Assembly: GCA_019308685.1 (NCBI GenBank)
Contig: JAFDHQ010000003.1
Span: forward strand, 1 to 50,118
Source: Deltaproteobacteria bacterium
Lineage (GTDB): Bacteria > Desulfobacterota > Desulfobacteria > Desulfobacterales > UBA11574
Reading direction: 5' to 3'
DNA: 50,118 nucleotides
Shown in pieces: positions 11,816 to 38,361 of the stretch; the stretch's first letter is position 1, and each line of letters opens with the position of its first letter. A program made the translations under genes and the position numbers. A model generated the notes under the pieces. It was not told where the DNA came from, did no database searches, and worked only from the letters and a program-made list of their open reading frames with translations.

Positions 11816-11857
11816 TCTGATTTCTGTATCGTATAACTATTGCTTTTGCATTTGGCT

Positions 11858-17395: not shown

Positions 17396-17400
17396 AATTT

Positions 17401-19747: not shown

Positions 19748-22700
19748 ATGTCCATCAGGGTAGGTTTTTATGTCTGCCATTGCGGGATCAATATCGCAGG
19801 CAAAGTTCGGGTTGAGGAGGTGGCCGACTTTGCCCGAAAGCTGAAAAATGTGGTGATCGCCCGGGACTATAAGTTTATGTGTTCGGACCCGGGCCAGGAG
19901 ATGATTGAAAAGGACATTAGGGAATTTAACCTTAACCGGGTGGTGGTAGCCTCTTGCTCACCCAGACTGCATGAAAAGACCTTTCAAAGTGCCTGCCGCC
20001 GGGCCGCTCTTAATCCTTATTTTTTCCAGATGGCCTCTGTTCGCGAACAAGTGTCCTGGGTCACCGAGGATGAAGATGAAGCCACCCAGAAAGCGAAAAC
20101 ACTGGCGGCGGCGGCGATCAACCGGGTCAATTACCATGAGAGACTTGATGATCGTGAGGCAGTGGTACATCCCGATATCATGGTCGTGGGTGGCGGTATT
20201 TCGGGCATGCAGGCTGCTTTAGACATCGGCAATGCCGGGCATAAAGTATATCTGGTGGAAAAATCGACGACCATTGGCGGGCACATGCTTCAATTCGATA
20301 AGACATTTCCCACGCTCGACTGTGCCGCCTGTATCGGAACCCCAAAAATGGTTGACGTGGTCCAAAATCCAAACATCGAGTTGATCTCATACAGCGAAGT
20401 AACGGAGGTGTCGGGATTCATTGGTAACTACACCGTCAAAATCCGTCGTAAGCCGCGATATGTAAAGGAAGGTGTCTGTACGGGATGTGGGGAATGTGCG
20501 AATGTCTGTCCGGTGTCAGTCCCGAGTGAGTGGGATGAGGGGCTGGGTCATCGCGCAGCCATTTATAGGGCATTCCCACAGGCCGTACCCATTACCTTCT
20601 GTATAGATAAAAAAGATCGGGCCCCTTGTGCGATCGCTTGTCCGGCGGGCATCAATGTCCAGGGCTATGTGCAACTCATCAGCCAAGGCAAGTACCGGGA
20701 AGCAACCCGGTTAATTATGGAGCGACTGCCCCTTCCGGGGGTACTTGGACGAGTCTGCCCGCATCCTTGTGAATCTCAATGCCGGAGGTTGGAGGTGGAT
20801 GAGGCCATTGCCATCAGGGATTTAAAGCGCTTTGCCGCAGATCATACAAACCTGACAGAACTCGAACCGCCGGAAATTCAGGAATGTTCGGAGAAGGTAG
20901 CAGTGGTCGGCTCAGGTCCGTCCGGGCTGACCGTAGCATACTACCTGCGGTTAAAGGGCTATCAGGTAACTATTTATGAGGCGCTTGACGTCTTGGGCGG
21001 AATGCTTCGGGTGGGAATTCCGGATTTTCGTCTCCCTTCACAAGTTCTTGACCATGAGATCGATTATATTCTCCGCCTGGGTGTTAAGACGCGAACCGGA
21101 GTCCGGTTTGGATCTGATCTTACACTTAACGATTTGAAACAAGAGGGTTTCTCCGCTGTGTTTCTCGGAATCGGAGCTCATGATTCCCTGGATATGCACA
21201 TTCCCGGTGAGAAGGACACGCAAGGAGTTATGGATGCAGTTCGTTTTTTAAGGCAAGTAAATTTGGGGGATAAAACCTGCCCCGGCAGACAAGTTGTCGT
21301 GGTTGGCGGCGGAAATGTGGCCATTGATACGGCACGGGCGGCAAAGCGCCTGGGCGCCCGGGAAGTTACTGTGGTTTATCGCCGCTCGGAACGGGAAATG
21401 CCCGCCTATGCTGAAGAGATTGAAGGTGCTAAAAATGAAGAAATTCGTTTTTTCTTTCTCACCGCTCCGGTCAAAATTCTTGAAAAACAGGGTAAGGTTG
21501 ACGGCTTTGAATGTATCCGTACCAAACTGGGGCCACCGGATGCCAGCGGGCGCCGTCGCCCATTGCCGGTGGCAGGTTCCGAATTCGTGATTCCCTGTGA
21601 TGCGGTGATTCCGGCCATTGGCCAGAAAACCCATGCGCCCTGGGCCGACCGGGAGCCCGACCTTATATGGTCTCCGAGAAACACCTTGAAGGTAAACCTC
21701 CGGACAATGCAAACCAGTATTCCCTACGTGTTTGCCGGAGGCGATGCGGTCATGGGTCCGGCAACGGTGATAGAGGCCGTAGCTGCCGGTCACAAGGCTG
21801 TTGAGGCAATCCATCGCTATATTAACGGCGAAGATCTGGACCTTTATGCAAAACAGGTTGAAGTCCGGGAACAACCGGGCCGCGATTGGCAGGAAATTCC
21901 GGATGGGCTTTACCGGAAATCCCGGGCACATCCACAGCATCTAGACCCAAAGCTGAGTGCAACGTCCTTTGACGAAGTGGACCTTGGTCTTTCAGAAAGC
22001 GAGGCACAACGAGAAGCCAGGCGCTGCCTGAATTGCGGTCTCTGCTGTGAATGTATGGAATGCGTCCGGGTTTGTGAGGCAAATGCCATAGACCACCGTA
22101 TGAAGGAAAAAGAATTAGAGGTAAAGGTTGGGAGCATTATCATCGCCACCGGATACGACACCATAGATCCCACGCCCATGAAGCAGTTTGGATACGGCAA
22201 ATACCCAAATGTCTTTACCGCCCTTGAATTCGAGCGTCTCAGCAATGCGACCGGTCCCACCGGCGGTGAGATCCTTATCAGAGACCAAAACGGGGAACTC
22301 ACCCGAATTCCAAAAAGGGTGGCCATTCTCCACTGCATCGGCAGCCGGGATGTAAATTATCATGAATACTGCTCCCGGGTTTGCTGTATGTACGCCCTCA
22401 AGTATGCCCATCTGATCCATGAAAAAGTGGGCCACGATGCTCAAATTTTTAATTTTTACATTGACATGCGTTGCTTTGGCAAAGGTTATGAAGAGTTTTA
22501 CGAAAGGTGTCAGCGAGAAGGAACCCATTTCATCAGGGGCAAGGTGGCGGAGATTACCGATCAGGCGATCAAACCCGAAGAGCACGGCAAACTCATCACC
22601 ATTGCAGAAGACACTCTCCTGGGACGGAGCATACGGATTCCGGTGGATATGGTAATCCTGTGCAATGCGATTCAGGCCCGAAGCGATGCTCAAGAGGTTG

Positions 22701-23158
22701 GCAGGATTTTTGGAGTCAACCAGGGTGCAGACGGTTTTTTTCTGGAGGAACACCCCAAACTGGGTCCTCTGGACACTGCTACGGACGGAGTTTTTCTGGC
22801 CGGGGTCTGTCAGGGCCCCAAAGATATTCCGGATTCGGTTTGCCAGGCATCCGGCGCGGCTGTCAAAGCCCTGGCATTAGCTACTCGGGGCAAAGTGGAG
22901 ATTGCTCCGATCATATCGTGGATCGACCCGGACGTGTGCGCGGGATGCCAGACCTGTATTGATCTTTGTCCATATTCGGCTATAGAATATAACGTTCGCA
23001 AAGGCATCTCGGTGGTCAATGAGGCACTTTGCAAAGGGTGTGGGAGTTGTGCCGGATTTTGTCCCAGCGGTGCGGCACAGGTCAAACATTTCAATGAAAA
23101 ACAGATTTTTGCAGAACTCGAAGGAATCATTGATTCATTGAATTCAGTAGGAATTTAA
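19748..23158 (+). CDS. hdrA: HdrA (methanogen-like domain order) with inserted GltD/NfnB-like NAD(P)H module (HdrL-type)
   Basis: N-terminal VCHCG..MCS..SCSP, GGGISG, FDKTFPTLDCAAC, APCAIACP/GRVCPHPCE, GSGPSG, GGGNVA, YRR, HCIGSRD, CSRVCCMYALK, C-terminal ferredoxin. Confidence 0.93.
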   Translation: MSIRVGFYVCHCGINIAGKVRVEEVADFARKLKNVVIARDYKFMCSDPGQEMIEKDIREFNLNRVVVASCSPRLHEKTFQSACRRAALNPYFFQMASVREQVSWVTEDEDEATQKAKTLAAAAINRVNYHERLDDREAVVHPDIMVVGGGISGMQAALDIGNAGHKVYLVEKSTTIGGHMLQFDKTFPTLDCAACIGTPKMVDVVQNPNIELISYSEVTEVSGFIGNYTVKIRRKPRYVKEGVCTGCGECANVCPVSVPSEWDEGLGHRAAIYRAFPQAVPITFCIDKKDRAPCAIACPAGINVQGYVQLISQGKYREATRLIMERLPLPGVLGRVCPHPCESQCRRLEVDEAIAIRDLKRFAADHTNLTELEPPEIQECSEKVAVVGSGPSGLTVAYYLRLKGYQVTIYEALDVLGGMLRVGIPDFRLPSQVLDHEIDYILRLGVKTRTGVRFGSDLTLNDLKQEGFSAVFLGIGAHDSLDMHIPGEKDTQGVMDAVRFLRQVNLGDKTCPGRQVVVVGGGNVAIDTARAAKRLGAREVTVVYRRSEREMPAYAEEIEGAKNEEIRFFFLTAPVKILEKQGKVDGFECIRTKLGPPDASGRRRPLPVAGSEFVIPCDAVIPAIGQKTHAPWADREPDLIWSPRNTLKVNLRTMQTSIPYVFAGGDAVMGPATVIEAVAAGHKAVEAIHRYINGEDLDLYAKQVEVREQPGRDWQEIPDGLYRKSRAHPQHLDPKLSATSFDEVDLGLSESEAQREARRCLNCGLCCECMECVRVCEANAIDHRMKEKELEVKVGSIIIATGYDTIDPTPMKQFGYGKYPNVFTALEFERLSNATGPTGGEILIRDQNGELTRIPKRVAILHCIGSRDVNYHEYCSRVCCMYALKYAHLIHEKVGHDAQIFNFYIDMRCFGKGYEEFYERCQREGTHFIRGKVAEITDQAIKPEEHGKLITIAEDTLLGRSIRIPVDMVILCNAIQARSDAQEVGRIFGVNQGADGFFLEEHPKLGPLDTATDGVFLAGVCQGPKDIPDSVCQASGAAVKALALATRGKVEIAPIISWIDPDVCAGCQTCIDLCPYSAIEYNVRKGISVVNEALCKGCGSCAGFCPSGAAQVKHFNEKQIFAELEGIIDSLNSVGI

Positions 23159-23206
23159 AATGGTGTTTTGTATTTTGTCACTTATACCAAACACCAAATA
23201 TCAAAA

Positions 23207-23352
23207 GAGAGACCTTTGAAAAACGTTCAATTTTGTTCAAGTTCAAGGAAGACGAAGATTTTAACCACAGGCATACATTGAGTATGTCGAGGATTAAAAT
23301 CTGAGTCTGACGCAGAAATTGGGCAAAAGGGGACGTTTTGCAAAGGTCTCTA
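23207..23352. repeat. ERIC-like/MITE repeat, subfamily B
   Basis: Inverted ends AGAGACCTTTGAAAAACGT / ACGTTTTGCAAAGGTCTCT. Core AACCACAGGCATAC-ATTGA-GTATGTCGAGGATT. Abuts the mvhD RBS. Confidence 0.8.
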
Positions 23353-23363
23353 GGAGGGAGATC

Positions 23364-23786
23364 ATGGAAGGTTTTGAACCGACAATCATCGCTTTTGTGT
23401 GTAACTGGTGTACATATACCGCCGCAGATCTGGCCGGAACCTCAAGATTGGGTTATCCCGCCAACGTAAGATTGATTCGGGTGATGTGCACCGGCATGGT
23501 TGACCCCAAATATGTGATCAAGGCCTTTCTTGAAGGGGCCGATGCGGTTCTTGTGAGTGGGTGCCATCCCGGAGATTGCCATTACATTAACGGAAATTAC
23601 AAAGCGAGAAGACGGATCAAGCTTCTCAAAGAAATCCTTCCCCAATTCGGCTTCGACGATGAACGGCTCCGCTTGACCTGGATCGGGGCCAGCGATGGAA
23701 TCCAGTTTGCCGAGACCATTCGTAAAATGGTAACACAGATGAAGATCCTGGGACCCAACGAGGCCAAATTAAAGATTGTAATATAA
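23364..23786 (+). CDS. mvhD: MvhD/FlxD-family [2Fe-2S] subunit, all-Cys
   Basis: GGAGG RBS, ATG 23364; CNWC, RVMCTG, GCHPGDCHY. Confidence 0.93.
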   Translation: MEGFEPTIIAFVCNWCTYTAADLAGTSRLGYPANVRLIRVMCTGMVDPKYVIKAFLEGADAVLVSGCHPGDCHYINGNYKARRRIKLLKEILPQFGFDDERLRLTWIGASDGIQFAETIRKMVTQMKILGPNEAKLKIVI

Positions 23787-23827
23787 CTTTAGTATGTGTC
23801 TATACCCTAATTCGGAGAGATTTTAAG

Positions 23828-24970
23828 GTGAAAACAGCGAAAATCAAAGTAAAAGACGGAGACCTTTTGGCAACTCTGCGAGAGTTTTTTCGATCCATCC
23901 TCCAGTTGGAGGATATCAGTGCGATTCTGGTTCCACAACATCTCCCCATGAAGAATGTGGTAATGCCGACTCTGGTGACCGATCCTGAACAACTCAACGG
24001 CATCGATCCTCTGGCACCGGCGTTTCCCATCAATTCAGCCAAAATTGTTTCCCGGCTCACTCGTAAACCCATGGGACAAAAAGTGGCGGTTGTGTTGCGC
24101 CCCTGTGAGATAAGGGCATTTATCGAATTGGTGAAACTCAAGCAAGGCCGGACTGAAGAAGTGGTTCTGGTGGGAATCGACTGCCTGGGAGCATACAAGA
24201 ACCTCGATTATACTCAGATTGTCGGGGAACAAGAAACAGAATTCACTTCAAGATTTTACCGGAATGTCTTATCCGGGAAAGAAATCGCCGAAAACGGGTT
24301 TGACCTGAACCCGGCCTGCAAAGCATGCGAACACCCTGTTCCCGATGGTGCAGACATTTTAATCGGACTTTTCGGGGTCGATACAAACCACAGCCTGATG
24401 ATCCAGGCCCGGACTTTAAACGGAGAGGACCTCTATAGAAATCTTAATCTTTCACATGCAGAGGAACCACCGGAACGTACGGCGGCCGTTGCATCGCTGA
24501 TCGCTGAAAGAACCGCCTATCGTGATAAAATGTTTGCAGAAACTTCCGAGGTCACCAACAGCGTAGAGAAACTGAACATTTATCTTGCCAACTGCATAAA
24601 CTGTTACAACTGCAGGGTGGCCTGTCCGGTTTGCTATTGCAAAGAATGTGTTTTTGTTACAGATGTTTTTAACCATGAACCGATTCAGTACCTGCGATGG
24701 GCCAATCGCAAGGGTATCATCAAGATGCCCACCGATACCGTGTTTTATCATATTACCCGGCTGGCACACATGAGTACCGCATGTGTCGGGTGCGGACAGT
24801 GTTCCAATGCCTGTCCCAACAACATTCCGGTAATGGAGTTGTTTCGAACCGTTTCATTTCAAACACAAAAAGGGTTCGAATACGAACCGGGGAAGAGTAT
24901 TGAGGATGAACCTCCCTTGTCGGTGTTTCGGGAAGATGAACTCGCCGATGTTGTCGGAATCGGAAAATAG
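23828..24970 (+). CDS. FdhB/FrhB-family Fe-S protein (F420-hydrogenase/formate dehydrogenase beta-like)
   Basis: RPCEIRA..ELVK..Q, GIDC, ACKAC..P...ADI.IG, CINCYNCRVACPVCYCKEC, HITRLAH..CVGCGQCSNACP. GTG start. Confidence 0.8.
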   Translation: MKTAKIKVKDGDLLATLREFFRSILQLEDISAILVPQHLPMKNVVMPTLVTDPEQLNGIDPLAPAFPINSAKIVSRLTRKPMGQKVAVVLRPCEIRAFIELVKLKQGRTEEVVLVGIDCLGAYKNLDYTQIVGEQETEFTSRFYRNVLSGKEIAENGFDLNPACKACEHPVPDGADILIGLFGVDTNHSLMIQARTLNGEDLYRNLNLSHAEEPPERTAAVASLIAERTAYRDKMFAETSEVTNSVEKLNIYLANCINCYNCRVACPVCYCKECVFVTDVFNHEPIQYLRWANRKGIIKMPTDTVFYHITRLAHMSTACVGCGQCSNACPNNIPVMELFRTVSFQTQKGFEYEPGKSIEDEPPLSVFREDELADVVGIGK

Positions 24971-24987: not shown

Positions 24988-27900
24988 ATGAAGAAAAAAA
25001 TCGGTAAAGCATTGGTGGTGGGATCCGGAATCAGCGGTATCCGTGCGGCCCTGGATCTGGCGGAATTTGGCTATGGTGTCATTCTCATCGACCGGTTACC
25101 GCACATTGGAGGAATTTTAAGCCAGCTCGATTATCAGTTTCCGACCGACCGCTGCGGTATGTGCAAAATGCTTCCTCTGGTGGATCGAGATGCATCGTCC
25201 CAGTATTGCCTTCGCAAAGGACTTTTTCACGAAAACATCCAAATCCGTCTTTCCACAGAACTTACCTCTGTGGAAGGCGAACCAGGCCATTTTCAGGTGA
25301 CATTGCGTCAGAAGCCGAGACTTGTTGATCCTGTTCTGTGTGTGGGATGCGGTGAGTGTGTGAAAGTCTGCCCGGTGGAAGTTCCGGACTCTTTCCACGC
25401 CGGTATGACCACTCGAAAGGCCATCTACCTTCCGGTTCCACATGCTATTCCCAATCCGTACGTAATAGATATGGAGGCCTGTACCCGGTGCGGGGACTGT
25501 GAAGCGGTTTGTCCCACGGACGCCATCAAGGTCTCCGAGCACATACACAGAGACTTTCGGGTCCTGGTGGTGGACGACGAATTGATCGTCCGCGATTCAA
25601 TCAAGGAATGGCTGGAAGATGAAGGTTTTACCGTCAATGTAGCTGCATCCGGCCCGGAAGCCCTGGACATTCTGTCAAAACAATCCTATCAACTCATGCT
25701 CACGGATATTAAAATGCCGGGAATGGGCGGTGTGGAACTCCTTCAAAAAGCCAAGGAGGACTTTCCCGATATCTGCGTGATTATGATGACCGCCTATGCC
25801 ACGGTAGAAACTGCTGTGGAGGCCATGAAGATCGGAGCATCCGACTATCTCATAAAACCCTTTGAACCCGATAATCTTATTCAAATGGTTTTTCAAAAAT
25901 ACCAGGAGCACGAAGCCGCCAGTGAAGCACCCATAGAAGTCGGGGCTCTGGTTCTTTGTGGAGGTACAGCCTATTTTAATCCTTCCGAAGGCGAGAACAC
26001 CTTCGGGTATGGTGTTTATCCGAATGTGGTAACGAGTCTGGATTTTGAAAGAATTTTAAGTAGCGCCGCCCTGCAACAGGGTCGTCTGGTCCGGCCTTCC
26101 GACAGCAAACCCCTTCGCAAGGTGGCCTGGTTCCAGTGTGTGGGATCCAGAGACATTAAGATCGACGCCGACTTTTGCTCCTTTGTCTGCTGTATGCACG
26201 CAATTAAAGAAGCCCTGGTGGCCAAGGAAAGGGCTGAAGATGAACTGGAAGCGGCTATTTTTTACATGGATATGCGCACGTTTGGAAAGTCGTTTCAGCG
26301 CTACCGCTGCCAGGCGGAAACTAAGCACGGCGTTCGATTTGAAAGGGGGCGTGTCCATTCCATAATCCAGGATGAAGCCAGTGGAGATCTTATTGTCGGT
26401 CATGTAGATTATACCGGAACCCATAAAGAAGAGCACTTCGATATGGTTGTACTCTCCGTGGGCCAACGGCCGGCGCCAGGCACGGCTGAGCTGGCTGAAA
26501 TGGTTGGAATCTCTCTCAATCAGTGGGGATTCTGTAAGGCCGAACCTTTTTCAGAGACGCTGACCAGTCAGGAAGGAATCCTGTTGGGAGGTTCCTTTTC
26601 AGGTCTCAAGGACATCAATGATTCTGTAATCCAGGCTTCTGCTGCTGCTTTGGCTGCATCCCTTGTGATTCATACCACCGGTGGCAGCCTTCTTCTGGAA
26701 CCTAAATCCCATGAGCCTTTTCTCGACATTTCACAAGAACCGCCCAGAGTTATGGTGCTTGTCTGTACCTGCGGCGACACCCTTTCCAAGCTTTTCGATC
26801 CGCAGCAACTTGCCCGGCGCCTTAAGACTGATCCGGGTGTGGACCGGGTTTTCTTTCTTGAACAGACCTGTACCGCTGCGGGCTGGGAAAACCTTGTTGA
26901 ATTGGTGGAAAAACACAAACCCAACCGTATTCTGATCGGGGCCTGCATTCCCTATCTGTACTCGCGAAAAACCAGGGAACTGGGACGACGTGTGGGTTTG
27001 GTGCCCGGCCTCATTCATGTGGTCAATTTAAGGCTCATGGATCAACTGTCAAAACTCAAGGATGAAACTCCGTCAGCAGATGAAATAACAGCAATTATCC
27101 ATGAGCTATCGTCTATTTTGGGAATGGGTCTTGCCAGACTTAAATGGGCTGACCCTACTCCTGCGCCCAGGGTGAAGATTTTTCAGCAGGCTCTGGTGGT
27201 GGGCGGGGGAATCGCCGGAATGACCGCCGCCCTTGCCATCGCAGATCACGGCTTTCAAGTAGATCTGGTGGAAAAAGAAGAGATGTTGGGGGGTAATCTT
27301 ACTTGGTTGGAGCGAGATCTGGAAGGAAACATAACAGAGATTATTTTGGAGAAAACACGGCATAATTTGGAAAAACATCCCTTGATCCGGGTCCACACCC
27401 GAAGCCGGGTGCTCGGCTCCTATGGTCAGGTGGGGCGTTTTTATACCACTATTGAGGACAAAGCAAAAGGGACTTTCACCCTGGAACACGGCGTGACCAT
27501 TCTTGCAACTGGAGGAATGGAAGCGACAACCACCTCATATAACTACGACAAAAGCGAGGCCATTATCACCCAAAAGGAGCTGGAGCAAAAAATAAATGAC
27601 AATAAACTCCATCCGAGCCAACTCGAATCAGTGGTCATGATTCAGTGTGTGGATTCCAGAGAGGAGCCAAGGAATTACTGCAGCCGAATATGCTGTGATA
27701 CCTCTTTAAAAGATGCTCTATGTCTCAAGAGGCAAAATCCTGATATTGACATCTACATTTTTTATCGGGACATTATGGCCTATGGATTTGTCGAGTCCTA
27801 TTACACCCAAGCCCGCAAGGCAGGTGTGATCTTTATCCCCTATGATGTGGCTGAAAAACCCCGGGTAACGGTCACGGACGGATCTATTCAGGTAACCGCC

Positions 27901-28428
27901 TCTGAACCAATTATCGGTCAAAAAATACGGCTGGATGCGGATCTTGTTGTCCTCGCCACCGGCATTGTTCCCACACTTCCAAAGGACCTTGCAGAAGCTT
28001 TCGGCGTGACTGTCGATCAGGACGGTTTCTTTCAGGAGGCGGAGACGAAATGGAGACCCGTGGATTCGATCAAGGAAGGTGTTTTTGCCTGCGGTCTGGC
28101 ACATTCTCCCCGCAATATTGCAGAATCCATAGCCACTGCCAGAGCGGCGTCCCAGCGCGCTTTGAGGATTCTCTGCCACGAACACATGCCTGCCGGCAAA
28201 GTCGTGGCGGAGATTCATCACAGCCTATGCAGTTTATGTGAACAATGCATCGACGCCTGCCCCTATGGTGCCCGTACCTTAGATCTTGATCTGGAAAAGG
28301 TGATCATCAATCCCGCTATGTGCCAGGGATGCGGATCATGCGCCACGGTTTGTCCCAACAGCGCGTCGACGCTCGTTGGGTTTTCAGACCGGCAAATGCT
28401 CGATGTCATTGATTCTGCATTTGAATAA
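24988..28428 (+). CDS. hdrA: Tandem HdrA-like flavoprotein with an internal response-regulator receiver domain (25549-25917)
   Basis: GSGISG, FPTDRCGMC and two ferredoxin motifs come first. The receiver LVVDDE...TDIKMPG...MTAY...KPF follows. The protein then resumes with QCVGSRD, CSFVCCMHAIK, a second GGGIAG, CSRICC and a C-terminal ferredoxin, all in one ORF. Confidence 0.93.
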   Translation: MKKKIGKALVVGSGISGIRAALDLAEFGYGVILIDRLPHIGGILSQLDYQFPTDRCGMCKMLPLVDRDASSQYCLRKGLFHENIQIRLSTELTSVEGEPGHFQVTLRQKPRLVDPVLCVGCGECVKVCPVEVPDSFHAGMTTRKAIYLPVPHAIPNPYVIDMEACTRCGDCEAVCPTDAIKVSEHIHRDFRVLVVDDELIVRDSIKEWLEDEGFTVNVAASGPEALDILSKQSYQLMLTDIKMPGMGGVELLQKAKEDFPDICVIMMTAYATVETAVEAMKIGASDYLIKPFEPDNLIQMVFQKYQEHEAASEAPIEVGALVLCGGTAYFNPSEGENTFGYGVYPNVVTSLDFERILSSAALQQGRLVRPSDSKPLRKVAWFQCVGSRDIKIDADFCSFVCCMHAIKEALVAKERAEDELEAAIFYMDMRTFGKSFQRYRCQAETKHGVRFERGRVHSIIQDEASGDLIVGHVDYTGTHKEEHFDMVVLSVGQRPAPGTAELAEMVGISLNQWGFCKAEPFSETLTSQEGILLGGSFSGLKDINDSVIQASAAALAASLVIHTTGGSLLLEPKSHEPFLDISQEPPRVMVLVCTCGDTLSKLFDPQQLARRLKTDPGVDRVFFLEQTCTAAGWENLVELVEKHKPNRILIGACIPYLYSRKTRELGRRVGLVPGLIHVVNLRLMDQLSKLKDETPSADEITAIIHELSSILGMGLARLKWADPTPAPRVKIFQQALVVGGGIAGMTAALAIADHGFQVDLVEKEEMLGGNLTWLERDLEGNITEIILEKTRHNLEKHPLIRVHTRSRVLGSYGQVGRFYTTIEDKAKGTFTLEHGVTILATGGMEATTTSYNYDKSEAIITQKELEQKINDNKLHPSQLESVVMIQCVDSREEPRNYCSRICCDTSLKDALCLKRQNPDIDIYIFYRDIMAYGFVESYYTQARKAGVIFIPYDVAEKPRVTVTDGSIQVTASEPIIGQKIRLDADLVVLATGIVPTLPKDLAEAFGVTVDQDGFFQEAETKWRPVDSIKEGVFACGLAHSPRNIAESIATARAASQRALRILCHEHMPAGKVVAEIHHSLCSLCEQCIDACPYGARTLDLDLEKVIINPAMCQGCGSCATVCPNSASTLVGFSDRQMLDVIDSAFE

Positions 28429-28437
28429 AGGGCTTTG

Positions 28438-28545
28438 GATTGAAAATTGAGGATTGAAGATTGTCGATTTATGGAATCGCTTTGCTCTGGCTTTTTTAAT
28501 ACATTTGATAGAATACCTTCAATCATCAATGGAAAATCATCAATT
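28438..28545. repeat. Intergenic element: inverted arrays of GATTGAA-type heptamers around a conserved core
   Basis: GATTGAA AATTGAG GATTGAA GATTGTC GATT ... TTCAATC ATCAAT..AATC ATCAATT. Core similar to 1024-1067. Confidence 0.65.
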
Positions 28546-28559
28546 AAAAAGGGGGGCAA

Positions 28560-29141
28560 ATGAACCCTTTGGAAAAATTAGAAAGCGAACAAAAATCTGA
28601 AACTGCACCTGCTCTGGTTATTGATTCACTGGCATCCATCCGGGATATGGTCAGCGCCTGCATCCAGTGCGGTACGTGTACGGGTTCTTGTCCCAATGCC
28701 TTTGCCATGGATCTCACTCCCCGTCAGCTGTGGTACAATGTCCTTAGAGGAGAAAAAGAAACAATTTTTCATTCAAAGACCTTCTCACTATGTTCCGTCT
28801 GCTATTACTGTACACTACGATGCCCACGGGGTCTTCCGCTTACCGAGGCGATGAGTGCACTCAAGCAGATAGCCGCAAAGGAGAATCTGGCGCCCTATAA
28901 GAAGAGCACCCGTTTTTACAAAAGTTTTTTGGAGAGCGTATATCGTCATGGCCGGGTCAGGGAGATGGAGTTGATGACACTCTATTTTATTTCCATGAAA
29001 AACCCCTTTCTGCCCCTTCAGTTTGCGCCCTTGGGAATAAAACTCATGGGCAAAGGAAAGATTTCTTTCGAGATTCCTTCAAAAGGAAACGGTGCGTTAA
29101 AAGCGATCTTTCGTAAGGTGGAAGAGTTAGAGCAGAATTAA
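28560..29141 (+). CDS. hdrC: Heterodisulfide reductase subunit C
   Basis: CIQCGTCTGSCP, CSVCYYCTLRCPRG. Confidence 0.9.
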   Translation: MNPLEKLESEQKSETAPALVIDSLASIRDMVSACIQCGTCTGSCPNAFAMDLTPRQLWYNVLRGEKETIFHSKTFSLCSVCYYCTLRCPRGLPLTEAMSALKQIAAKENLAPYKKSTRFYKSFLESVYRHGRVREMELMTLYFISMKNPFLPLQFAPLGIKLMGKGKISFEIPSKGNGALKAIFRKVEELEQN

Positions 29142-29219
29142 TATAATAATTTTCGCCAAGTTGAGCAGCGAAGCCGCGTTCTATAAAATCGTAATACGAT
29201 TTTATTGTGGAAGGCAAAT

Positions 29220-30089
29220 ATGAAATACCTATATTATCCGGGATGTTCTCTTGAGGGAACGGCGTTAGAATACAACTCCTCCACCAGAACCTTCATGCAG
29301 GAACTGGGAGCAGAACTCATTGAACTTGAAGACTGGACCTGTTGCGGTGCCAGTGCTGCCGAGGCCACAAGCCACCTTCTTTCTCTGGCGCTTCCGGCAC
29401 TCGTTCTCGCAAAGGCCGAGAACATGGATGGAGTTAAGGAAATTCTTGTTCCGTGCAGCGCGTGCTATCTAAACCTGAAAAAGGTCGAGGAAAAAATACG
29501 AAAGGATCGGGAGCTTCTTGACCAAATCAACATCATATTAGCCGAAGAAAAGCTTAACCTGCGCGGTCAAATGAAGGTCCGGCATCTCCTTGACGTGGTG
29601 GCAAATGACGTGGGTTCTAAAAAGATTTTTGCCCGCGTGAAAAAGCCGTTAACCGATCTTATCATCGCTCCCTATTATGGCTGCCAGTGCCTTCGCCCGT
29701 ACTCTATTTTTGACGATCCCGAAGATCCCTGCTCTATGGAAGGGATTATTAAAGCCTCGGGGGCAAATATCCATCAATGGAATATGGGGGGAAGATGCTG
29801 TGGCGCATCTCATATGACCACCAAGCCAGAGGTAGCCCTGGAACTCGTGGCCGCTATATTGAAAATGGCCCGGGGAGCAGATGCCATTGTTACGGTTTGT
29901 CCCATGTGCCAGATGAACCTGGAGGCATACCAGAAAAAAATATCAGGGATGTGCAAAGAGGATCTGAGCATGCCCATCCTTTATCTTCCTCAGTTTCTGG
30001 GGCTGGCCCTTGGCCTCTCGGAACAGGATTTGCGATTGGACATGAATCTATCCTTTACCAAAGCCTTCCGAAACAAAGTACTGTCATGA
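29220..30089 (+). CDS. hdrB: Heterodisulfide reductase subunit B
   Basis: MKYLYYPGCS, WTCCG, CSAC, YYGC, RCCG, CPMCQMNL. Confidence 0.92.
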   Translation: MKYLYYPGCSLEGTALEYNSSTRTFMQELGAELIELEDWTCCGASAAEATSHLLSLALPALVLAKAENMDGVKEILVPCSACYLNLKKVEEKIRKDRELLDQINIILAEEKLNLRGQMKVRHLLDVVANDVGSKKIFARVKKPLTDLIIAPYYGCQCLRPYSIFDDPEDPCSMEGIIKASGANIHQWNMGGRCCGASHMTTKPEVALELVAAILKMARGADAIVTVCPMCQMNLEAYQKKISGMCKEDLSMPILYLPQFLGLALGLSEQDLRLDMNLSFTKAFRNKVLS

Positions 30090-30152
30090 ACTTACAAATC
30101 AAACCTCCCCTTTTCTTTGAAACCTTCTGGCTTGAAGAGGAAAGGCCTGACG

Positions 30153-31472
30153 TTACACGGATGCTCGTCGGGAAATGGGTAGCCGGTTTATACTGATGGT
30201 TGGACATGCCGCGGAAAGGGCAACCCGAAGGGCATTTGAACCGAGCAAAGCTTTTTCCGGATCAATCTCTTTGGAATGATGGGCCATAATGATTAAGTCG
30301 GCATTCCTCCACCTGGCGAATTTGAGGATCTCGACATATGGCCTCCCCTCCCATGATTCAAAAGAATATTCTACAACTCCTTCTAATTCCGAGCCATATT
30401 TGTTTTTCATTCTTTCCTTGGCGTCATTGATACTGTTTTCTATATTCGCTTGATCTATCATCAAAACATTCTCATCATGGATAACAGGCACCACGTGAAA
30501 GAGGTGGAGTTTGGCCTGGTATCGGCGGGTCATCCTGGAGGCAAAATCAAAGGCATGTTGAGCCCGTTCAGAAAAGTCCGTAGCCAGGACAATATTAGAA
30601 AACGTCACCTTTACCGATCGAAGAGCTTCAAAATCCTGGTATACCTGAAAGACCTTATCCACAAGGATCTCAGGGTCAAATGGTTTGAGGAGATAGTCAA
30701 GGGCTCCAATCTTCAAGGCTTCTATGGCCGTTTCTACGGTGGCGTAGGCGGTCATCATGATTACGGTAAGATCGGGAAAGGATTTATGGGCCCTTTTAAG
30801 GAGTTCAACACCGTCCATTCCCGGCATTTTGATATCCGTAAGCATCAGGTGATACGGTTGGGTCGACAGTTTATCCAGAGCCTCCGGACCGGATGCCGCC
30901 ATATCCACGGTATAGCCCTCATCTTCAAGCCATTCTTTGATTGAATCGCGAACGACGAGTTCATCGTCCACCACCAGAATTCGAAAATCCCGGCGCTCAC
31001 CAACAGCATCCTTGGTCCAGATCTTTGGAACCTGCTTGGGAACGATCATCACGGGACAGCGTGCCCGTTGGCTCACTTTTTGGAGGCTGCTGCCGGCCAT
31101 CCCCCATCTTGTCGGCAGATCTTCATCGGTTTCTTTTTCATGGGAACCCATGACAATCAGGTCAACGACTTTATTTCTGGCAAAACGCAAGATTTCGCTA
31201 TGAGGCATTCCTGCAACAACTTCGATGGTATAATTTTGAACCCCAAATTTTTCGATCTTTTCTTGATAGTAATGAGCTATTTCTTTTTTTGTTTCCTCTA
31301 CTTTGCCGGAAGGCAAAAGATGTCTCATTCCTCCCCATCCATTTGAGTCTATGCCGTAGGCGTGGAAAATATACAATTCGGCATTGCCTTGCTTGGCCAG
31401 AGCAAAAGCCATATCCGCAGCACGTTTACTGGCTTCTGTGGGAGATGCAGCGAAAAGAACTTTTTTAAACAT
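30153..31472 (-). CDS. USP-receiver-USP fusion (universal stress protein with internal REC domain, 30624-30992)
   Basis: USP1 MFKKVLFA...DLIVMGSH...GS..QKV...CPVMIV; REC LVVDDE/TDIKMP/MTAY/KPF; USP2 FSNIVLATDFS...DLIIMAHH...LLGS...CPTI. Confidence 0.9.
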   Translation of the reverse strand: MFKKVLFAASPTEASKRAADMAFALAKQGNAELYIFHAYGIDSNGWGGMRHLLPSGKVEETKKEIAHYYQEKIEKFGVQNYTIEVVAGMPHSEILRFARNKVVDLIVMGSHEKETDEDLPTRWGMAGSSLQKVSQRARCPVMIVPKQVPKIWTKDAVGERRDFRILVVDDELVVRDSIKEWLEDEGYTVDMAASGPEALDKLSTQPYHLMLTDIKMPGMDGVELLKRAHKSFPDLTVIMMTAYATVETAIEALKIGALDYLLKPFDPEILVDKVFQVYQDFEALRSVKVTFSNIVLATDFSERAQHAFDFASRMTRRYQAKLHLFHVVPVIHDENVLMIDQANIENSINDAKERMKNKYGSELEGVVEYSFESWEGRPYVEILKFARWRNADLIIMAHHSKEIDPEKALLGSNALRVALSAACPTISINRLPISRRASV

Positions 31473-31562
31473 AGTTCCTCCTTGGATTTAGAAACGACTC
31501 AACTCAAAAAATGTGATTCGGGCAACCATTTACATAAATTTAAAACGTTTCTTTTTCTGAGG

Positions 31563-31600
31563 TATTACTCGAATCTTGCACGAGTCGGAGGCTTTCATAT
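31563..31600. repeat. 38 bp intergenic repeat, copy 1
   Basis: TATTACTCGAATCTTGCACGAGTCGGAGGCTTTCATAT; 34/38 identical to 35772-35809. Confidence 0.7.
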
Positions 31601-31640
31601 ATAAGATCCAGTCATTAACCACCGGGTTTGCTTTGAATCC

Positions 31641-33896
31641 CTAAGCTTTTCTGTATTGCCGCTTGGGTTGATCCTCCCTCTTCAGCGACGGAAGACGAAT
31701 CGTAAAAACGGTCCCTTCCCCCAGCTTGCTGTCAACAGTGATAGATCCCTTATAGCGGTCGATGATACCGTAAACCATGGAAAGTCCGAGTCCAAGCCCC
31801 TTCCCTTCTGTTTTTGTGGAATAGAACGGATCAAAAATCTGGTGAATGTCTTCCTCAGCAATACCGCATCCGGTATCTTCTATTTTTATTTCGACCATCT
31901 CCGTTATCGGATCAAATGAACTTACCATGGTCAGGGTGCCGCCATCCGACATGGCGTCAATAGCATTAAAAATGAGATTGATAACGCATTGCTGGGTTTG
32001 ATTAAAGTCCCCCAAAACCTTTGGAATATTCGGATCAAAATCGGTTTTAATCTGGATATTCTGAAGCATGAGTTTGTGCTGGCTGAGCAGAATGCATTTT
32101 TCCAGAAGCTCGTTAATACTCATTTCGCTGAGTTCCAATTCAGATTTGCGTGAGAACGCCAGCAGATTGGAAACGATCTTGGAGCAGCGGCTGGTCTCAC
32201 TCTCAACTAGGGTGAGATGTTTTTGAAACTTTTCTATTCTTTTTTGGTCCAAATCCCCCCTTTTAATGATTTTGAGCATCAGGCGAATATAGTTCAAGAT
32301 TCCTGATAGGGGATTGTTGAGCTCATGGACGACGCTGGCGGACAGCCTGCCCAGAGAAATCATTTTGTGCTCGTGAATCAGTCGGGTTTGATCGGCAAAC
32401 TGCTGTTCCATTCTTCTGATTTCTCTTAAATCCCTGAAAAATCCCACCATGCCGATCTCTTCGTCTTGGTCAAACATAACCGTAGCCGAAAGCTGGACCG
32501 GGATCTTATCACCGGTTTTATTAATCATATATGTTTCAAAAAGAATAAGCCGGTTTTTCCCTCCGTATTCATCGGAAACCAGTTCTTTCCTGACCTCTTC
32601 CAACATCGCCGGCGGGAAAAGATCGTTAAAAGACATTTTCATGATCATTTCATATGCGGAATAACCCAGCAGTTTCTCGGCTTGCTGATTGAAAACGACA
32701 ATGGAACCATCTCTGTCCGAGGCGATGATGGCATCTATGGAACTCTGAATCAGGTTGTGTTCAAACTCAAAGAGTGTTTGGAGCTCTTGTTGCAGGCGCT
32801 TGACCTCGCGCATATCTTTAAAATAGCCTACCGTGGCAACTTCCTGACCTTCTTCATACAGCAATGTTGCGGAGAGCAGAATGGGTACGATCTGCCCATA
32901 CTTATCGACAATTTCCACTTTATAGTTAAGCAAACGGCCGCCCCCCCCGTGTTCAGGCCCGTAAATCATTCTCTTAATTTTTTTAGCCTCGCCCTCTTTG
33001 TAAAACCGGGTAACGTGAATTTTGGAAACTTCCTCCTGGGTGTAACCGAAAACGTTTTCAGCGCCTTTGTTAAAAATGATGATGTTGCCTTTACGGTCAT
33101 TGGCAATGATCGGGTCTATTGAGGTCTGGATAAGGTTGGTTTGAAAGTCATGCGCTTTTTTAAGCTTTCGTTCCATCTCCTTTCTCTGGGTTTGATCCAC
33201 ACAGATCCCTTCATACCCGATAACCTTCCCCTCTCGATCATAGCGGGCGTGGGCGGTTCGCAATACCGAGATCACTCTTCCATCCTTGCGCTTCAAATCA
33301 ACTTCATAGTCAATGACGTGACCGTCTCGTTCAATCAAATCCATGTATTTTCGGCGATCTTCAGGTTTCAGATAAAGGTCTCTGGCGATATCTACCTTAA
33401 GAAACTCCTCTTTGCTCGTGTATCCCAACATCTCCATAAGAGCCTGATTGGCATCAATAAACTTACCTTCCTTGCTGCTTATATGCACACCGACACGCAC
33501 ATGTTCAAACAATTTTTTGTAGTCTTCTATGGAGGCGCGAAGCATTTTTTCGCGCTCTTTTGTCTCTGTGATATCCTGATATATACAAAAATGCGATATG
33601 GTTCCTTTATCGGTTTGCAAAGGTAATTCGAAAATCTCGAAAGTTTTGTCGATGTGCGGAAAGTAGTTTTCCCAACGAAGGGTTTCTCCCTTAAAGACTT
33701 CTTTTGCCCTGCACCAGGAGCAGATATCGTCTTGATTCGCAATCACCTGATAACATTTCTTTCCAATGCCTTCTCCAAAGACGTTAATACTGGCCTTGTT
33801 CATAAATTGTACAGTGTAATCATCCCCGATGATATAAACGCCACACCCCATGGCATCTAAAATTGAAGCAAGCCGTTGGGTCTCTTGATCAATCAT
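31641..33896 (-). CDS. Soluble sensor histidine kinase with four PAS domains
   Basis: VHELNNPL, NLIFNAIDA, DTGCGI, FYSTK, GLGLGL; four PAS-like repeats; first PAS has C-x10-C-x2-C. Confidence 0.95.
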   Translation of the reverse strand: MIDQETQRLASILDAMGCGVYIIGDDYTVQFMNKASINVFGEGIGKKCYQVIANQDDICSWCRAKEVFKGETLRWENYFPHIDKTFEIFELPLQTDKGTISHFCIYQDITETKEREKMLRASIEDYKKLFEHVRVGVHISSKEGKFIDANQALMEMLGYTSKEEFLKVDIARDLYLKPEDRRKYMDLIERDGHVIDYEVDLKRKDGRVISVLRTAHARYDREGKVIGYEGICVDQTQRKEMERKLKKAHDFQTNLIQTSIDPIIANDRKGNIIIFNKGAENVFGYTQEEVSKIHVTRFYKEGEAKKIKRMIYGPEHGGGGRLLNYKVEIVDKYGQIVPILLSATLLYEEGQEVATVGYFKDMREVKRLQQELQTLFEFEHNLIQSSIDAIIASDRDGSIVVFNQQAEKLLGYSAYEMIMKMSFNDLFPPAMLEEVRKELVSDEYGGKNRLILFETYMINKTGDKIPVQLSATVMFDQDEEIGMVGFFRDLREIRRMEQQFADQTRLIHEHKMISLGRLSASVVHELNNPLSGILNYIRLMLKIIKRGDLDQKRIEKFQKHLTLVESETSRCSKIVSNLLAFSRKSELELSEMSINELLEKCILLSQHKLMLQNIQIKTDFDPNIPKVLGDFNQTQQCVINLIFNAIDAMSDGGTLTMVSSFDPITEMVEIKIEDTGCGIAEEDIHQIFDPFYSTKTEGKGLGLGLSMVYGIIDRYKGSITVDSKLGEGTVFTIRLPSLKREDQPKRQYRKA

Positions 33897-33979
33897 GGTA
33901 TGTTTCTCTCCTTGTGGGGTGTCTGAAAATTTTCGTGTTCAATTTTCTTTTCAATCTCTCGTTGGCCCGAGCGGTGCGT

Positions 33980-34366
33980 TTATCTGGGATGACATTCGCT
34001 GCACATGATCGGTCCGGCCTTTTTTTCCTGGTGGCATCCCTTGCATTGCAAATGGTAAATGTTTACAAGGGAAATGGGGTTGTCGCCTTTATTAATGGTA
34101 TGGCATTCCGAACATTCCTGGCCTTCGGACGAATCATATTCAACGAGTTTCCCATCCTCATATACATGATGACACGTATTGCATTCATCAAGCTCTGCCT
34201 GTTCATTGTGCTGATCATGCAGAAACGGAACCCCCGGTCTCATCTTCTTCTCAAATGCGCTGTCTTCAACAGTTGTCACATCTTCCTGTGAATAGCCGGA
34301 CATCACCGCAAATATACAACCCAACAGAATTATTAACGTATATATTATCAAAGTCCTTTTTTCCAT
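33980..34366 (-). CDS. tmcA: Acidic tetraheme cytochrome c3 (TmcA)
   Basis: Signal peptide; four CxxCH (CNTCH, CSECH, CKGCH, CSECH); FLHDQH; tmc context. Confidence 0.88.
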   Translation of the reverse strand: MEKRTLIIYTLIILLGCIFAVMSGYSQEDVTTVEDSAFEKKMRPGVPFLHDQHNEQAELDECNTCHHVYEDGKLVEYDSSEGQECSECHTINKGDNPISLVNIYHLQCKGCHQEKKAGPIMCSECHPR

Positions 34367-34412
34367 CAAGATTCCCCCGATTTTATGAGCCCGGCCCAAC
34401 TGAATTTACTCT

Positions 34413-35756
34413 TTATTCCGGTTTTTCCATGACTTTGTATATAATATCACCCAGAAAATGTAGTTCCATATCGAGGCCGAAGTGATGATTAATATCTTCA
34501 ATTCCGCCATGACAGTTATGGCAAGGGGCTATTATAACCTTTGCACCCCTGGCCTTTGTCGCAAATAACTGCTCTGCCTTGATCCTGTTCCCTTTAATCC
34601 GTGTCATCTTGTATTGAGGACCGGTGTTTATTACACCGCCTCCGGCACAACAACAATAATTATGTTCCCGATTGGGATGCATCTCGATAAATTCTTCACA
34701 AATGGCATTAACAACATAACGCGCCTTTTCATGAAGCCCTTTTCCCCGGACAATATTGCAGGGATCCTGAAAGGTCACCGGCTTATCATATTTTTTAGTG
34801 ATTTTTATCTTCCCCTCTTTTAATAATTCATAATAGAGTTCCACGGCATGTATAATGGGTATTGGCGGCATCTTCCATGCCAGCCAGCGGTTTCCCACAT
34901 CATATACCGATCGGAATGCATGTCCGCATTCTCCCATTACAATACGCTTGACCTTGAGGCGCATCGCCGTTTCAAAATGTGCCTTTTTTAACCGGCCCAT
35001 CATTTCATAGTCTCCGGTAAACATGCATAGATCGCTGTTGTCCCATCCGGGTGTTGCCGGCATGGTAAAATCAACTCCGGCTACATTCATGATAACCGCA
35101 GCCTGATATATGAGCTGTGCTCGAAATTTCGGTTCAGGAGCAATCACAGAGTAAAGAGTTTCAGCTCCTTCCTTTTCCAGGGGTATTCTTAAAGAAGATA
35201 TTTCATCCTGTGCTTCTTCTTCTTGCCAAAACAGACTGTCAATCCATTCATCTTCCTTTACCCACATCTGGTTTAAGCAGGCGGAATGGCTGTGCGCGGT
35301 ATCCTGTATGTACAGCGGGGTGACCCCCAGCATATGGCAGAGCCTTCGCACAATAGACATTAAGTAAGCAATGTCTATACCAAATGGGCAATACATGGCG
35401 CAGCGTCGGCACAGGTTGCATTCCGTGTATGCAATGCGGGAGGCATTTCTTATAAACTCAGGATCAACGTTACCCTTTTTCTTTAATATTTCCCATATGG
35501 TTTGTTTCACCTTACCCGCAGGAGAATATTTCGGATCGTTATCATGGGAAAGATAATAGTGGCAAGCCTCAGAGCAAAGTCCACAGTGGACACAGGTTTC
35601 AACATAGGCCTTCAGCCGGGCGCCGGTTTCCGACGCCAAAACCTTGTTGATAACCTGCTTGATCTTCTCCGGAGTCAAGCGTGCAATTCCCTTATCAATC
35701 CCCTCATCAACAACTTTATTAATTTCATCTTTTTTATTAATGGCTGGTTCAGCCAT
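34413..35756 (-). CDS. tmcB: TmcB, HdrD/DsrK-like Fe-S/CCG subunit
   Basis: CVHCGLCSEAC, CNLCRRCAMYCPFGID, GECGHA, DPCN, CCCAGGG, PCHNC. Confidence 0.88.
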   Translation of the reverse strand: MAEPAINKKDEINKVVDEGIDKGIARLTPEKIKQVINKVLASETGARLKAYVETCVHCGLCSEACHYYLSHDNDPKYSPAGKVKQTIWEILKKKGNVDPEFIRNASRIAYTECNLCRRCAMYCPFGIDIAYLMSIVRRLCHMLGVTPLYIQDTAHSHSACLNQMWVKEDEWIDSLFWQEEEAQDEISSLRIPLEKEGAETLYSVIAPEPKFRAQLIYQAAVIMNVAGVDFTMPATPGWDNSDLCMFTGDYEMMGRLKKAHFETAMRLKVKRIVMGECGHAFRSVYDVGNRWLAWKMPPIPIIHAVELYYELLKEGKIKITKKYDKPVTFQDPCNIVRGKGLHEKARYVVNAICEEFIEMHPNREHNYCCCAGGGVINTGPQYKMTRIKGNRIKAEQLFATKARGAKVIIAPCHNCHGGIEDINHHFGLDMELHFLGDIIYKVMEKPE

Positions 35757-35771
35757 GTTATATTCTCCTTT

Positions 35772-35809
35772 TATTACCTGAATCTTGCACGATTCGGAGG
35801 CTTTTATAT
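35772..35809. repeat. 38 bp intergenic repeat, copy 2
   Basis: Repeat of 31563-31600; part of the hairpin CCTGAATCTTGCACGA...TCATGCAAAATTCAGG. Confidence 0.7.
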
Positions 35810-35840
35810 TTCATGCAAAATTCAGGGATTAAATTGTTTC

Positions 35841-36500: not shown

Positions 36501-36535
36501 GGCTTTTTTCCCTTTTAGCCCGAGAGAGATCCGGG

Positions 36536-37819: not shown

Positions 37820-38064
37820 TTTCTTTTTGAATAGCTCCTTGTCTGATCTTAACTATACGGGTTTTGCATGTATTCTATCTTATATTAATTTTCAGAAAAA
37901 ACAATTTCAAAATTTGAGCCCACCATTTAAACCATGCTTTACCCATGTATTTATTAGATTTATTTTTATTAATATCAAACTATTAAATTCCTCCCTCTAT
38001 TTTAATTTTATTCTGTTCCGCAACGAGACCACACCGCTTTAAAAGAAAATTTTTACAATTACAC

Positions 38065-38210: not shown

Positions 38211-38361
38211 GTATGCATGCGACGCACAGACAGGCGAGGCCAAGCAATTTCTCTTGGCTTTTTAAAAAAAACATTTTTTCTTTAACTTTGATAAAAATTT
38301 TTATATATTTAATTTTGGCTGAATCAGAAGCGGATAGTAAATTATCTCTTGGAGGGTAGCT

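Follow-up and report, generated by a model that had tools for sequence, protein, structure and literature searches.

An HdrA-type receiver inserted between the two USP domains of a Desulfobacterales protein, and a neighboring kinase that probably serves both receivers

We analyzed a gene that encodes two universal stress protein (USP) domains with a response-regulator receiver domain (REC) between them, here called USP-REC-USP. It lies in a 50,118-nucleotide stretch of DNA (the window) that spans positions 1 to 50,118 of contig JAFDHQ010000003.1 in assembly GCA_019308685.1, from a Deltaproteobacteria bacterium of the order Desulfobacterales. The gene occupies 30153..31472 on the reverse strand, with its stop codon at 30153-30155, and its open reading frame encodes 439 amino acids. 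The initial annotation had read the three-part architecture from the sequence, and Pfam confirmed it, with Usp matching in two stretches (162.6 bits; best stretch, residues 291-425) and Response_reg (PF00072) matching residues 165-274 at 115.9 bits against a cutoff of 30.2. The N-terminal USP domain (residues 1-150; 31023..31472) was placed by Pfam and by alignment to MJ0577- and TTHA0350-type USPs. It is followed by a short N-side linker that accompanies the receiver (residues 151-160; 30993..31022; placed by alignment with REC-less tandem USPs), the receiver itself (residues 161-283; 30624..30992), and the C-terminal USP domain (residues 291-439; 30156..30602; Pfam), all on the reverse strand. 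In the receiver, D169, D170, D213, T241, and K263 are intact. Upstream of the gene, on the same strand, are a histidine kinase gene and tmcDCBA. Downstream, it converges on the hdrB gene of an Hdr operon, from which its stop codon is separated by 63 bases (30090-30152).

A closely similar receiver lies within the HdrA-like flavoprotein of that operon (1,146 amino acids; 24988..28428, forward strand; Pfam and NCBIfam). There, Response_reg matches residues 192-301 (112 bits) between the N-terminal 4Fe-4S part and the remaining flavoprotein, and the paralogous receiver spans 25549..25917 on the forward strand. A recount reproduced the identity that had been counted by hand, 93 of 123 amino acids (75.6%). 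The boundaries proposed for the shared segment held as well; in a BLASTP alignment of USP-REC-USP with HdrA (95/137 identities, E = 2e-60), identity starts at RDFR and fades after the ...EA end. At the nucleotide level, 281 of 369 positions are identical, corresponding to 102, 111, and 68 of 123 at codon positions 1, 2, and 3. Helix 1, which had been singled out as alike, reads ELVVRDSIKEWLEDEGY in one receiver and ELIVRDSIKEWLEDEGF in the other. As a check on whether many receivers of the genome are equally similar, we compared its 110 PF00072 matches. The next best match to either member of the pair (C152:4997-5317) is 52% and 56% identical, and no third receiver exceeds 56%. Among the 84 receivers with at least 90 aligned residues, only 7 of 2,894 aligned pairs reach 70% identity, this pair among them. 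What is unusual about the pair is that its host proteins differ. The six other pairs, 70 to 86% identical, are found on contigs C243/C129/C79, C276/C211, C79/C34, and C209/C103.

Helix 1 and the beta5-alpha5 loop of receivers carry kinase specificity. Five residues (D9, D10, D53, T81, and K103 in domain numbering) are invariant in 22/22 USP receivers and 42/42 HdrA receivers. Helix 1 (ELxxRDSxKEWLExE), the beta3-alpha3 loop (DIKMPGMDG), beta4-alpha4 (MMTAYAT), and beta5 (YLxKPF) are nearly invariant in both sets, and columns 79-105 of the alpha4-beta5-alpha5 face are nearly identical between them. The two sets are told apart by columns 70, 109, 113, and 121 only. According to an AlphaFold2 (AF2) model and general knowledge of the fold, these columns map to where helix 3 ends, to where helix 5 begins, and to the C-terminal junction.

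We next considered the age of the similarity. Aligned at the nucleotide level, the two receivers have a dN of 0.156, a dS of 1.12, and a dN/dS of 0.14 by the method of Nei and Gojobori (NG86). Codon usage alone would predict a shared codon at 38.4 of the 93 identical residues, and 58 have one; no identical stretch is longer than 16 nucleotides. Receiver phylogenies (69 rows, 123 columns) were built as a quick tree and a careful tree. The window's USP receiver fell into supported USP-only sets, with 17 rows and a Shimodaira-Hasegawa-like approximate likelihood-ratio test (SH-aLRT) value of 98 in the quick tree, and 13 rows with support of 98/84 in the careful tree. The HdrA receiver fell into a supported five-row HdrA set in both (99 and 100/99). 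Each receiver thus groups with its own orthologs and not with its counterpart in the same genome. The initial annotation had envisaged a shuffled cassette. From dS, dN/dS, and the trees, we conclude that the similarity reflects old paralogy under purifying selection and not a recent shuffle.

Comparisons across genomes agree with this history. In eight genomes, same-genome identities between USP and HdrA receivers were 76, 66, 61, 68, 66, 72, 64, and 56%, with no consistent excess over cross-genome pairs; the window holds the most similar pair. Concerted evolution of the two receivers within a genome was considered and is ruled out by the trees together with these identities. Among the HdrA receivers listed in a search of the order, identity to the window's USP receiver was 60 to 78%. 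Over the eight genomes compared, USP receivers were 56 to 76% identical to HdrA receivers, versus at most 56% between the window's USP receiver and any other receiver of its own genome. Given the far wider spread of the HdrA-borne form, we infer that the receiver passed from HdrA to the USP; the tree itself gives no proof of the direction.

The difference in spread was evident in that search, in which 14 candidates were scored per genome and 154 of 301 genomes of the order contained a receiver match at E ≤ 1e-35. Among the 150 matches listed (48 more lay beyond these), 133 were of the HdrA type, 120 of them in open frames of 1,005 to 1,541 amino acids and 13 more in HdrA genes that are truncated at a contig end or broken in frame. 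Thirteen were USP-REC-USP, and four were weaker matches of other kinds (54-57%). A third architecture had seemed possible for five shorter frames, all of which proved to be HdrA genes cut by contig ends or interrupted. At least 13 genomes encode USP-REC-USP (G000, G267, G151, G040, G036, G187, G134, G264, G115, G042, G214, G067, and G276), and at least eight families of the order include genomes with the USP/HdrA receiver pair. HdrA-REC is therefore widespread and USP-REC-USP an occasional companion. In a sample of the phylum, 9 of 301 genomes matched, including G000 and two of its own order; the six outside the order, G340 among them, carried HdrA-REC-like matches. Protein searches returned about 80 clusters of USP-REC-USP homologs (430-443 amino acids, 51-97% identity). 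Most come from metagenome records, and the few with organism labels belong to Desulfobacterales or Desulfobacteraceae. The next matches were REC-less tandem USPs of 296 to 315 amino acids, several labeled Desulfovibrio, Solidesulfovibrio, or Thermodesulfobacteriota.

The USP portion is itself strongly conserved. In an alignment of 49 sequences (51-94% identity), 26 columns are invariant in residues 1-150 and 27 in residues 291-439, including W46, W123-G124, C139, W374-E375-G376, H398-H399, and C423. A sequence search of the PDB with the whole protein returned receivers only. The AF2 model (mean predicted local distance difference test [pLDDT] score, 80.9; predicted template modeling score, 0.68) keeps a tandem-USP arrangement, with disordered loops at residues 42-54, 113-119, and 152-158. 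The last of these has low pLDDT and lies at the start of the inserted block, which begins at T152 in the alignment with REC-less tandem USPs. In Foldseek, the whole chain matched 3cis, 3ab8, 3loq, and 4r2j, and the middle part matched receivers. Like the tandem USPs Rv2623 of M. tuberculosis (3cis), TTHA0350 of T. thermophilus (3ab8), and UspE/YdaA of Salmonella (4r2j), the protein has two USP domains per chain (template modeling scores to target, 0.72-0.78, 0.69-0.70, and 0.58, respectively). Unlike these solved structures, to which it is 11 to 15% identical, it has a complete receiver in the interdomain linker. The ATP-binding subclass of USPs (MJ0577 or UspFG type) has the motif G-2x-G-9x-G[ST]. 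In contrast, the motif is degenerate in both domains of USP-REC-USP. The N-terminal domain has G-x2-E-x14-G-S (G-S-H-E, then a loop five residues longer than that of MJ0577), and the C-terminal domain has A-x2-S-x10-G-S (A-H-H-S, then a loop one residue longer than that of MJ0577, 1mjh). The final G-S is retained in both. Nucleotide binding is therefore possible but cannot be assumed.

Where did this host protein come from? The receiver and its short N-side linker form a single block in the inter-USP linker, at the same position in all aligned proteins, and the flanking USP domains are collinear with those of REC-less tandem USPs and have strong motifs in common with them. Similar REC-less proteins of the Desulfovibrionales type, encoded after hdrB or tmc/hmc genes, are 41 to 55% identical over the best local segment (31-49% of the query). 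They lack the receiver, and their signaling parts, where present, are in separate neighboring genes. In a quick tree built without the REC columns (LG+G4), 25/25 USP-REC-USP proteins formed one clade (SH-aLRT, 97), sister (100) to 15 REC-less tandem USPs. One locus was read among those 15 rows, that of genome G340 from another order, in which the tandem USP follows hdrB. The tandem USPs of tmc/hmc type are more distant relatives in this tree. A search for REC-less tandem USPs centered on G340's order pointed the same way. The closest matches to the G340 protein (46-87% identity, outside the USP-domain tree) followed hdrB in 10 of 14 fetched loci, with two after tmc genes and two in other contexts. 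Weaker matches (36-41%) followed tmc/hmc-like genes and were themselves followed by receiver and kinase genes in 6/6 loci. A phylum-wide search at E ≤ 1e-45 found REC-less tandem USPs in 2 of 301 genomes, at a threshold too strict to match even G000 itself. The single clade, the single insertion, and the sister USPs after hdrB together argue that a terminal USP of the Hdr operon gained an HdrA-type receiver once. The initial annotation was correct that one receiver type occupies two hosts, but the hosts are not as unrelated as it supposed, the USP being a tandem USP that ancestrally ended the same Hdr operon.

The receiver clade extends to a further host. Two hybrid kinases, P0084 and P0088 (513 and 523 amino acids), have the order REC-HisKA-HATPase_c. 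Each has another receiver within its ATPase domain (67% and 62% identity, respectively, to that of the USP), after which the Pfam HATPase_c profile resumes at position 35. By these sequences, the kinase ATPase domain is a third host of the clade. The N-side linker of these receivers (W-x-K ... R-[RK]-DFRIL) resembles that of USP-REC-USP. In G340, the insert at the corresponding site of the HdrA ortholog (L067:4667-8179) is receiver-like but degenerate, with VVATPDE in place of VVDDE. It has lost the acidic pair as well as the conserved Thr, and Pfam does not match it as a receiver. The Hdr operon of G340 ends with the REC-less tandem USP and a separate gene for a 127-residue receiver. The locus offers a clear case of a receiver domain spreading by internal insertion into several host proteins.

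It had also been suggested that the gene may be a Rosetta-stone fusion of separate USP and response-regulator genes, as at the Desulfovibrio vulgaris tmc locus. Such adjacent genes do exist. A tandem USP is followed by at least one receiver gene in L067, L070, and L074 (hdr type, 3/11), in L084-L089 (tmc/hmc type, 6/6), and in L068 and L069. The accessible text of PMC5109826 describes a USP, response regulators, and kinases at the corresponding locus of D. multivorans, with hmc genes downstream of tmcA1, and cites D. vulgaris. A layout of this kind is seen in L068, L069, and L084-L089. However, the neighboring stand-alone receivers are only 25 to 44% identical to the fused receiver, so the fusion did not join those neighbors. 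The USP part is orthologous to the separate tandem USPs, and the receiver part belongs to the HdrA clade instead.

The kinase gene directly upstream of USP-REC-USP (31641..33896, reverse strand) encodes a multi-PAS histidine kinase of 751 amino acids (Pfam PAS in three stretches, HisKA, and HATPase_c) and is the candidate cognate kinase. It has no apparent membrane anchor. Its dimerization and histidine phosphotransfer (DHp) domain has no close paralog in the genome. The next best, at 48%, belongs to another kinase of the window (11858-13933), which has its own NtrC-type partner (10350-11702); a third, at 43%, is encoded on contig C152, next to the third-closest receiver. Among 22 distinct USP-REC-USP loci, 20 (all except L055 and the 6.6-kb contig L056) contain a kinase with a 56 to 97% identical DHp domain. 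Similar DHp domains also occur beside Hdr operons that lack the USP, in G103 (84%), G252 (63%), and a Syntrophobacteraceae metagenome-assembled genome (54-60%).

Gene order around USP-REC-USP takes two main forms. In G134, G264, G214, and G067, a single strand carries HdrL, MvhD, the FrhB-like protein, HdrA(REC), HdrC, HdrB, and USP-REC-USP, followed by a REC-PAS kinase and a HAMP-PAS kinase; no tmc genes were seen within the 20 kb read. In the window, L002, L004, L006, L007, L009, G036, and G151, the order on one strand is tmcDCBA, kinase, USP-REC-USP, which converges on hdrB where the contig continues. G187 has kinase, tmcDCBA, and USP. The congener G103, rated 100% complete, keeps the kinase (76% identity), which converges on its Hdr operon. 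A search of its genome at E ≤ 1e-35 detected no USP-REC-USP receiver, and the fetched 20-kb locus (L063) showed no tmc. This locus runs, in the order of the window, from RecQ and a LysM protein through the kinase to a converging Hdr operon, without tmcDCBA and USP-REC-USP between. That both are missing together suggests that the tmc-USP block was gained or lost as a unit.

As judged from its sequence, USP-REC-USP is a response regulator whose body is a USP and which arose through domain insertion. In the reading that we consider rather probable, a tandem-USP body with a linker-inserted receiver of the HdrA type is controlled by the neighboring kinase, which likely serves the HdrA receiver as well. 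This reading builds on the architecture, the paralogy of the receivers, their single insertion, their intact acceptors, the shared docking face, the unique neighboring kinase, and the conserved synteny. The multi-PAS kinase would phosphorylate the USP receiver and the HdrA receiver, so that one signal would switch a redox enzyme and its USP accessory together, posttranslationally. The tandem-USP body would be the output, changing its conformation or its binding partner upon phosphorylation, and we favor the view that phosphorylation governs how this body interacts with Hdr, with Tmc, or with the two complexes alike. That the kinase transfers phosphoryl groups to both receivers, and that Hdr or Tmc responds, are predictions from sequence. 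A shared kinase, as the initial annotation had proposed, nevertheless fits every genomic test, namely, the docking face, the sole matching DHp domain, and the presence of the kinase beside Hdr in G103.

USP-REC-USP and HdrA-REC thus probably form a branch with one kinase and two receivers. They have the same receiver clade, operon, and neighboring kinase type in common, although the host of HdrA-REC is a flavin/Fe-S enzyme and not a USP, and HdrA-REC is the commoner of the two (133 versus 13 among the 150 matches listed). Branched two-component pathways have precedent in CheA, which feeds CheY and CheB. As in that system, one kinase type is encoded together with two receivers that have the same docking face. 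Unlike in that system, the outputs are neither DNA binding nor chemotactic, both receivers are internal insertions, and phosphotransfer is predicted.

Tmc and the flavin-based electron-bifurcating complexes of the Hdr type have a central part in how sulfate reducers conserve energy. We know of no posttranslational control of activity for either. Our literature searches, which covered the main text of articles, found no description of a receiver in HdrA or in a USP of these operons, nor of either architecture. For D. autotrophicum, a figure legend in PMC2702500 includes a response regulator and a kinase at the hdrL/hdrA4-hdrCB locus, and the word "receiver" does not occur in the accessible text. 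The locus offers a compact, testable circuit, consisting of one soluble multi-PAS kinase, one receiver in the enzyme, and one in the operon's conserved, otherwise unexplained USP, and with it the posttranslational control of an Hdr-type complex becomes testable. It also provides a hypothesis for the tandem USPs encoded alongside hdr, tmc, and hmc genes throughout Desulfobacterota, which may be phospho-controlled accessories of redox complexes.

A bolder version, which we hold to be improbable, treats the HdrA-type receiver as a portable plug-in to one kinase circuit. The phosphorylated USP receiver would pair with the HdrA receiver through the alpha4-beta5-alpha5 face, of which columns 79-105 are nearly identical in the two sets, docking the USP onto the Hdr complex and gating it. 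The same cassette in the ATPase domain of the hybrid kinases P0084 and P0088 would allow feedback within the circuit. If so, the assembly of an energy-conserving redox enzyme would be under direct, signal-dependent control without a transcriptional step. Structure prediction of an HdrB, HdrC, and USP-REC-USP complex scored 0.00 in two runs whose controls also stayed unfolded, a result that bears on binding in neither direction.

Several observations weigh against a common kinase circuit. At E ≤ 1e-35, no HdrA receiver was found in 5 of the 13 USP-REC-USP genomes (G267, G151, G036, G187, and G115). Four of these five have a contig that stops next to the gene or within the neighboring hdr genes; in G036 (61% complete), the 19 kb read contained no hdr operon, and the genome of G187 is 72% complete. 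The backbone of the receiver tree is poorly resolved. On it, the USP receivers form two supported groups and are a single clade in 6% of bootstrap trees, and the joint HdrA-type clade that holds the USP receiver has an SH-aLRT of 70 in the quick tree, which is weak support. A single clade of USP receivers was not rejected by the approximately unbiased test (P = 0.629), and the constrained tree outscored the quick free tree. The canonical ATP motif of USPs is degenerate in both domains. Two further points, extra kinases at some loci and the orientation of the gene, lead to specific alternatives.

The receivers might be alike through shared descent and slow evolution, each being served by a different kinase. 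The G134-type loci (G134, G264, G214, and G067), with a REC-PAS and a HAMP-PAS kinase in addition, would permit separate inputs to the two receivers there, bringing the number of kinases to two or three. The two pathways might also be kept apart by columns 70, 109, 113, and 121, three of which belong to the beginning of helix 5 and the C-terminal junction. The window itself has the second kinase at 11858-13933, with its 48% identical DHp domain. However, that kinase pairs with the NtrC-type regulator beside it, which leaves a single kinase with a matching DHp domain for two receivers of this type in the genome. In addition, helix 1 and the KPF region of beta5-alpha5 are nearly invariant in both receiver sets. 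We therefore regard insulated pathways as unlikely.

Alternatively, the kinase and USP-REC-USP could control TmcABCD in this lineage, with the link to Hdr merely historical. In this genome, USP-REC-USP shares its strand with tmcDCBA and the kinase and lies opposite to hdr, so its target could be Tmc. The tmcDCBA-kinase-USP-REC-USP order on one strand recurs in all the loci listed above for that layout, and G187 keeps the same genes in the order kinase-tmcDCBA-USP. Paralogous tandem USPs follow tmc/hmc-type genes in 6/6 fetched loci of another order, and a USP with response regulators and kinases stands at the tmc1/hmc locus of D. multivorans in the accessible text of PMC5109826. On the other side, USP-REC-USP comes directly after hdrB in the four G134-type genomes, the receiver is of HdrA's type, and the tmc/hmc-type tandem USPs are the more distant ones in the USP-domain tree. 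Control of Tmc in place of Hdr is doubtful on this evidence. It is also compatible with the one-kinase, two-receiver branch, for the protein could act on both complexes.

The initial annotation had raised the further idea of a phosphate sink, in which the receiver does no more than take up phosphoryl groups from the shared kinase, thereby adjusting how far HdrA is phosphorylated, and the USP domains have no signaling role. The kinase-docking face is indeed that of the HdrA receiver. The occurrence of USP-REC-USP in a minority of HdrA-REC genomes (at least 13 versus 133 among the 150 matches listed) would suit an optional modulator. The phosphate sinks known to us are single-domain receivers that lack a conserved output domain, but here both USP domains are conserved (26 and 27 invariant columns, respectively, among 49 sequences), and REC-less relatives encoded at the same place in the operon have kept the USP body as well. 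So many invariant columns in both domains argue for an output role, and a bare sink is correspondingly improbable. A recent duplication or gene conversion between neighboring genes, without selective meaning, is hardly credible; the cassettes are about 4.7 kb apart (25917 to 30624) and identical codons somewhat exceed the codon-usage expectation (58 versus 38.4), but the dS of about 1.0 to 1.1, the longest identical run of 16 nucleotides, the supported branches that split USP from HdrA receivers of the same genomes, and the presence of the receiver pair in at least eight families all contradict it.

On the forward strand, the Hdr operon begins with an HdrA/GltD fusion (19748-23158), called HdrL after PMC2702500, followed by MvhD (23319-23786) and an FrhB-like Fe-S protein (23828-24970), all assigned by Pfam and NCBIfam; the synteny of these upstream genes (19748..24970) is conserved in related loci. 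HdrC (28560-29141) and HdrB (29205-30089), identified from the open reading frame list, Pfam, and NCBIfam, follow HdrA on the same strand. On the reverse strand, upstream of the kinase, are tmcD (36536-37819), tmcC (35841-36500), tmcB (34413-35756), and tmcA (33980-34399), each above the cutoff of its NCBIfam equivalog. The order D, C, B, A is that of all related loci seen, including L068, L082, L085, and L088 of the other order. A scan of 29900-38400 returned promoter-like sites at chance level (14 versus 15.8 expected) and, downstream of the kinase gene, a single weak terminator-like site (31625-31608, reverse strand). Contigs from four wetland RNA libraries, 95 to 99% identical, cover much of the USP gene. 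They represent close relatives, and DNA carry-over is possible. One of them (849 nucleotides) covers 30008-30854. Being assembled contigs, they are informative about neither transcription nor its level, and stretches without cover carry no meaning.

Elsewhere (1113-5150, 10350-13933, and 14336-18920), the window contains a second kinase/regulator pair and two further Hdr-type sets, the latter comprising a GltD/HdrA fusion of 1,345 amino acids and an HdrA of 1,019 amino acids with HdrB- and HdrC-like genes. The second kinase, at 11858-13933, and its NtrC-type regulator are among the nearest relatives of the pair under study (DHp domain, 48%; receiver, 49-50%). The N terminus of the candidate kinase (33711-33896, reverse strand) has a first PAS-like stretch with C18, C48, C59, and C62, the last two in a C-S-W-C motif, and these four cysteines could form a metal- or redox-sensing site. 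In G134, the third signaling gene after USP-REC-USP (L047:17645-19915) encodes the HAMP-PAS kinase, which is presumably membrane bound. Its N-terminal, presumably periplasmic part has a C-Y-V-C-H motif, as in c-type heme attachment, which hints at a periplasmic redox input to the cascade.

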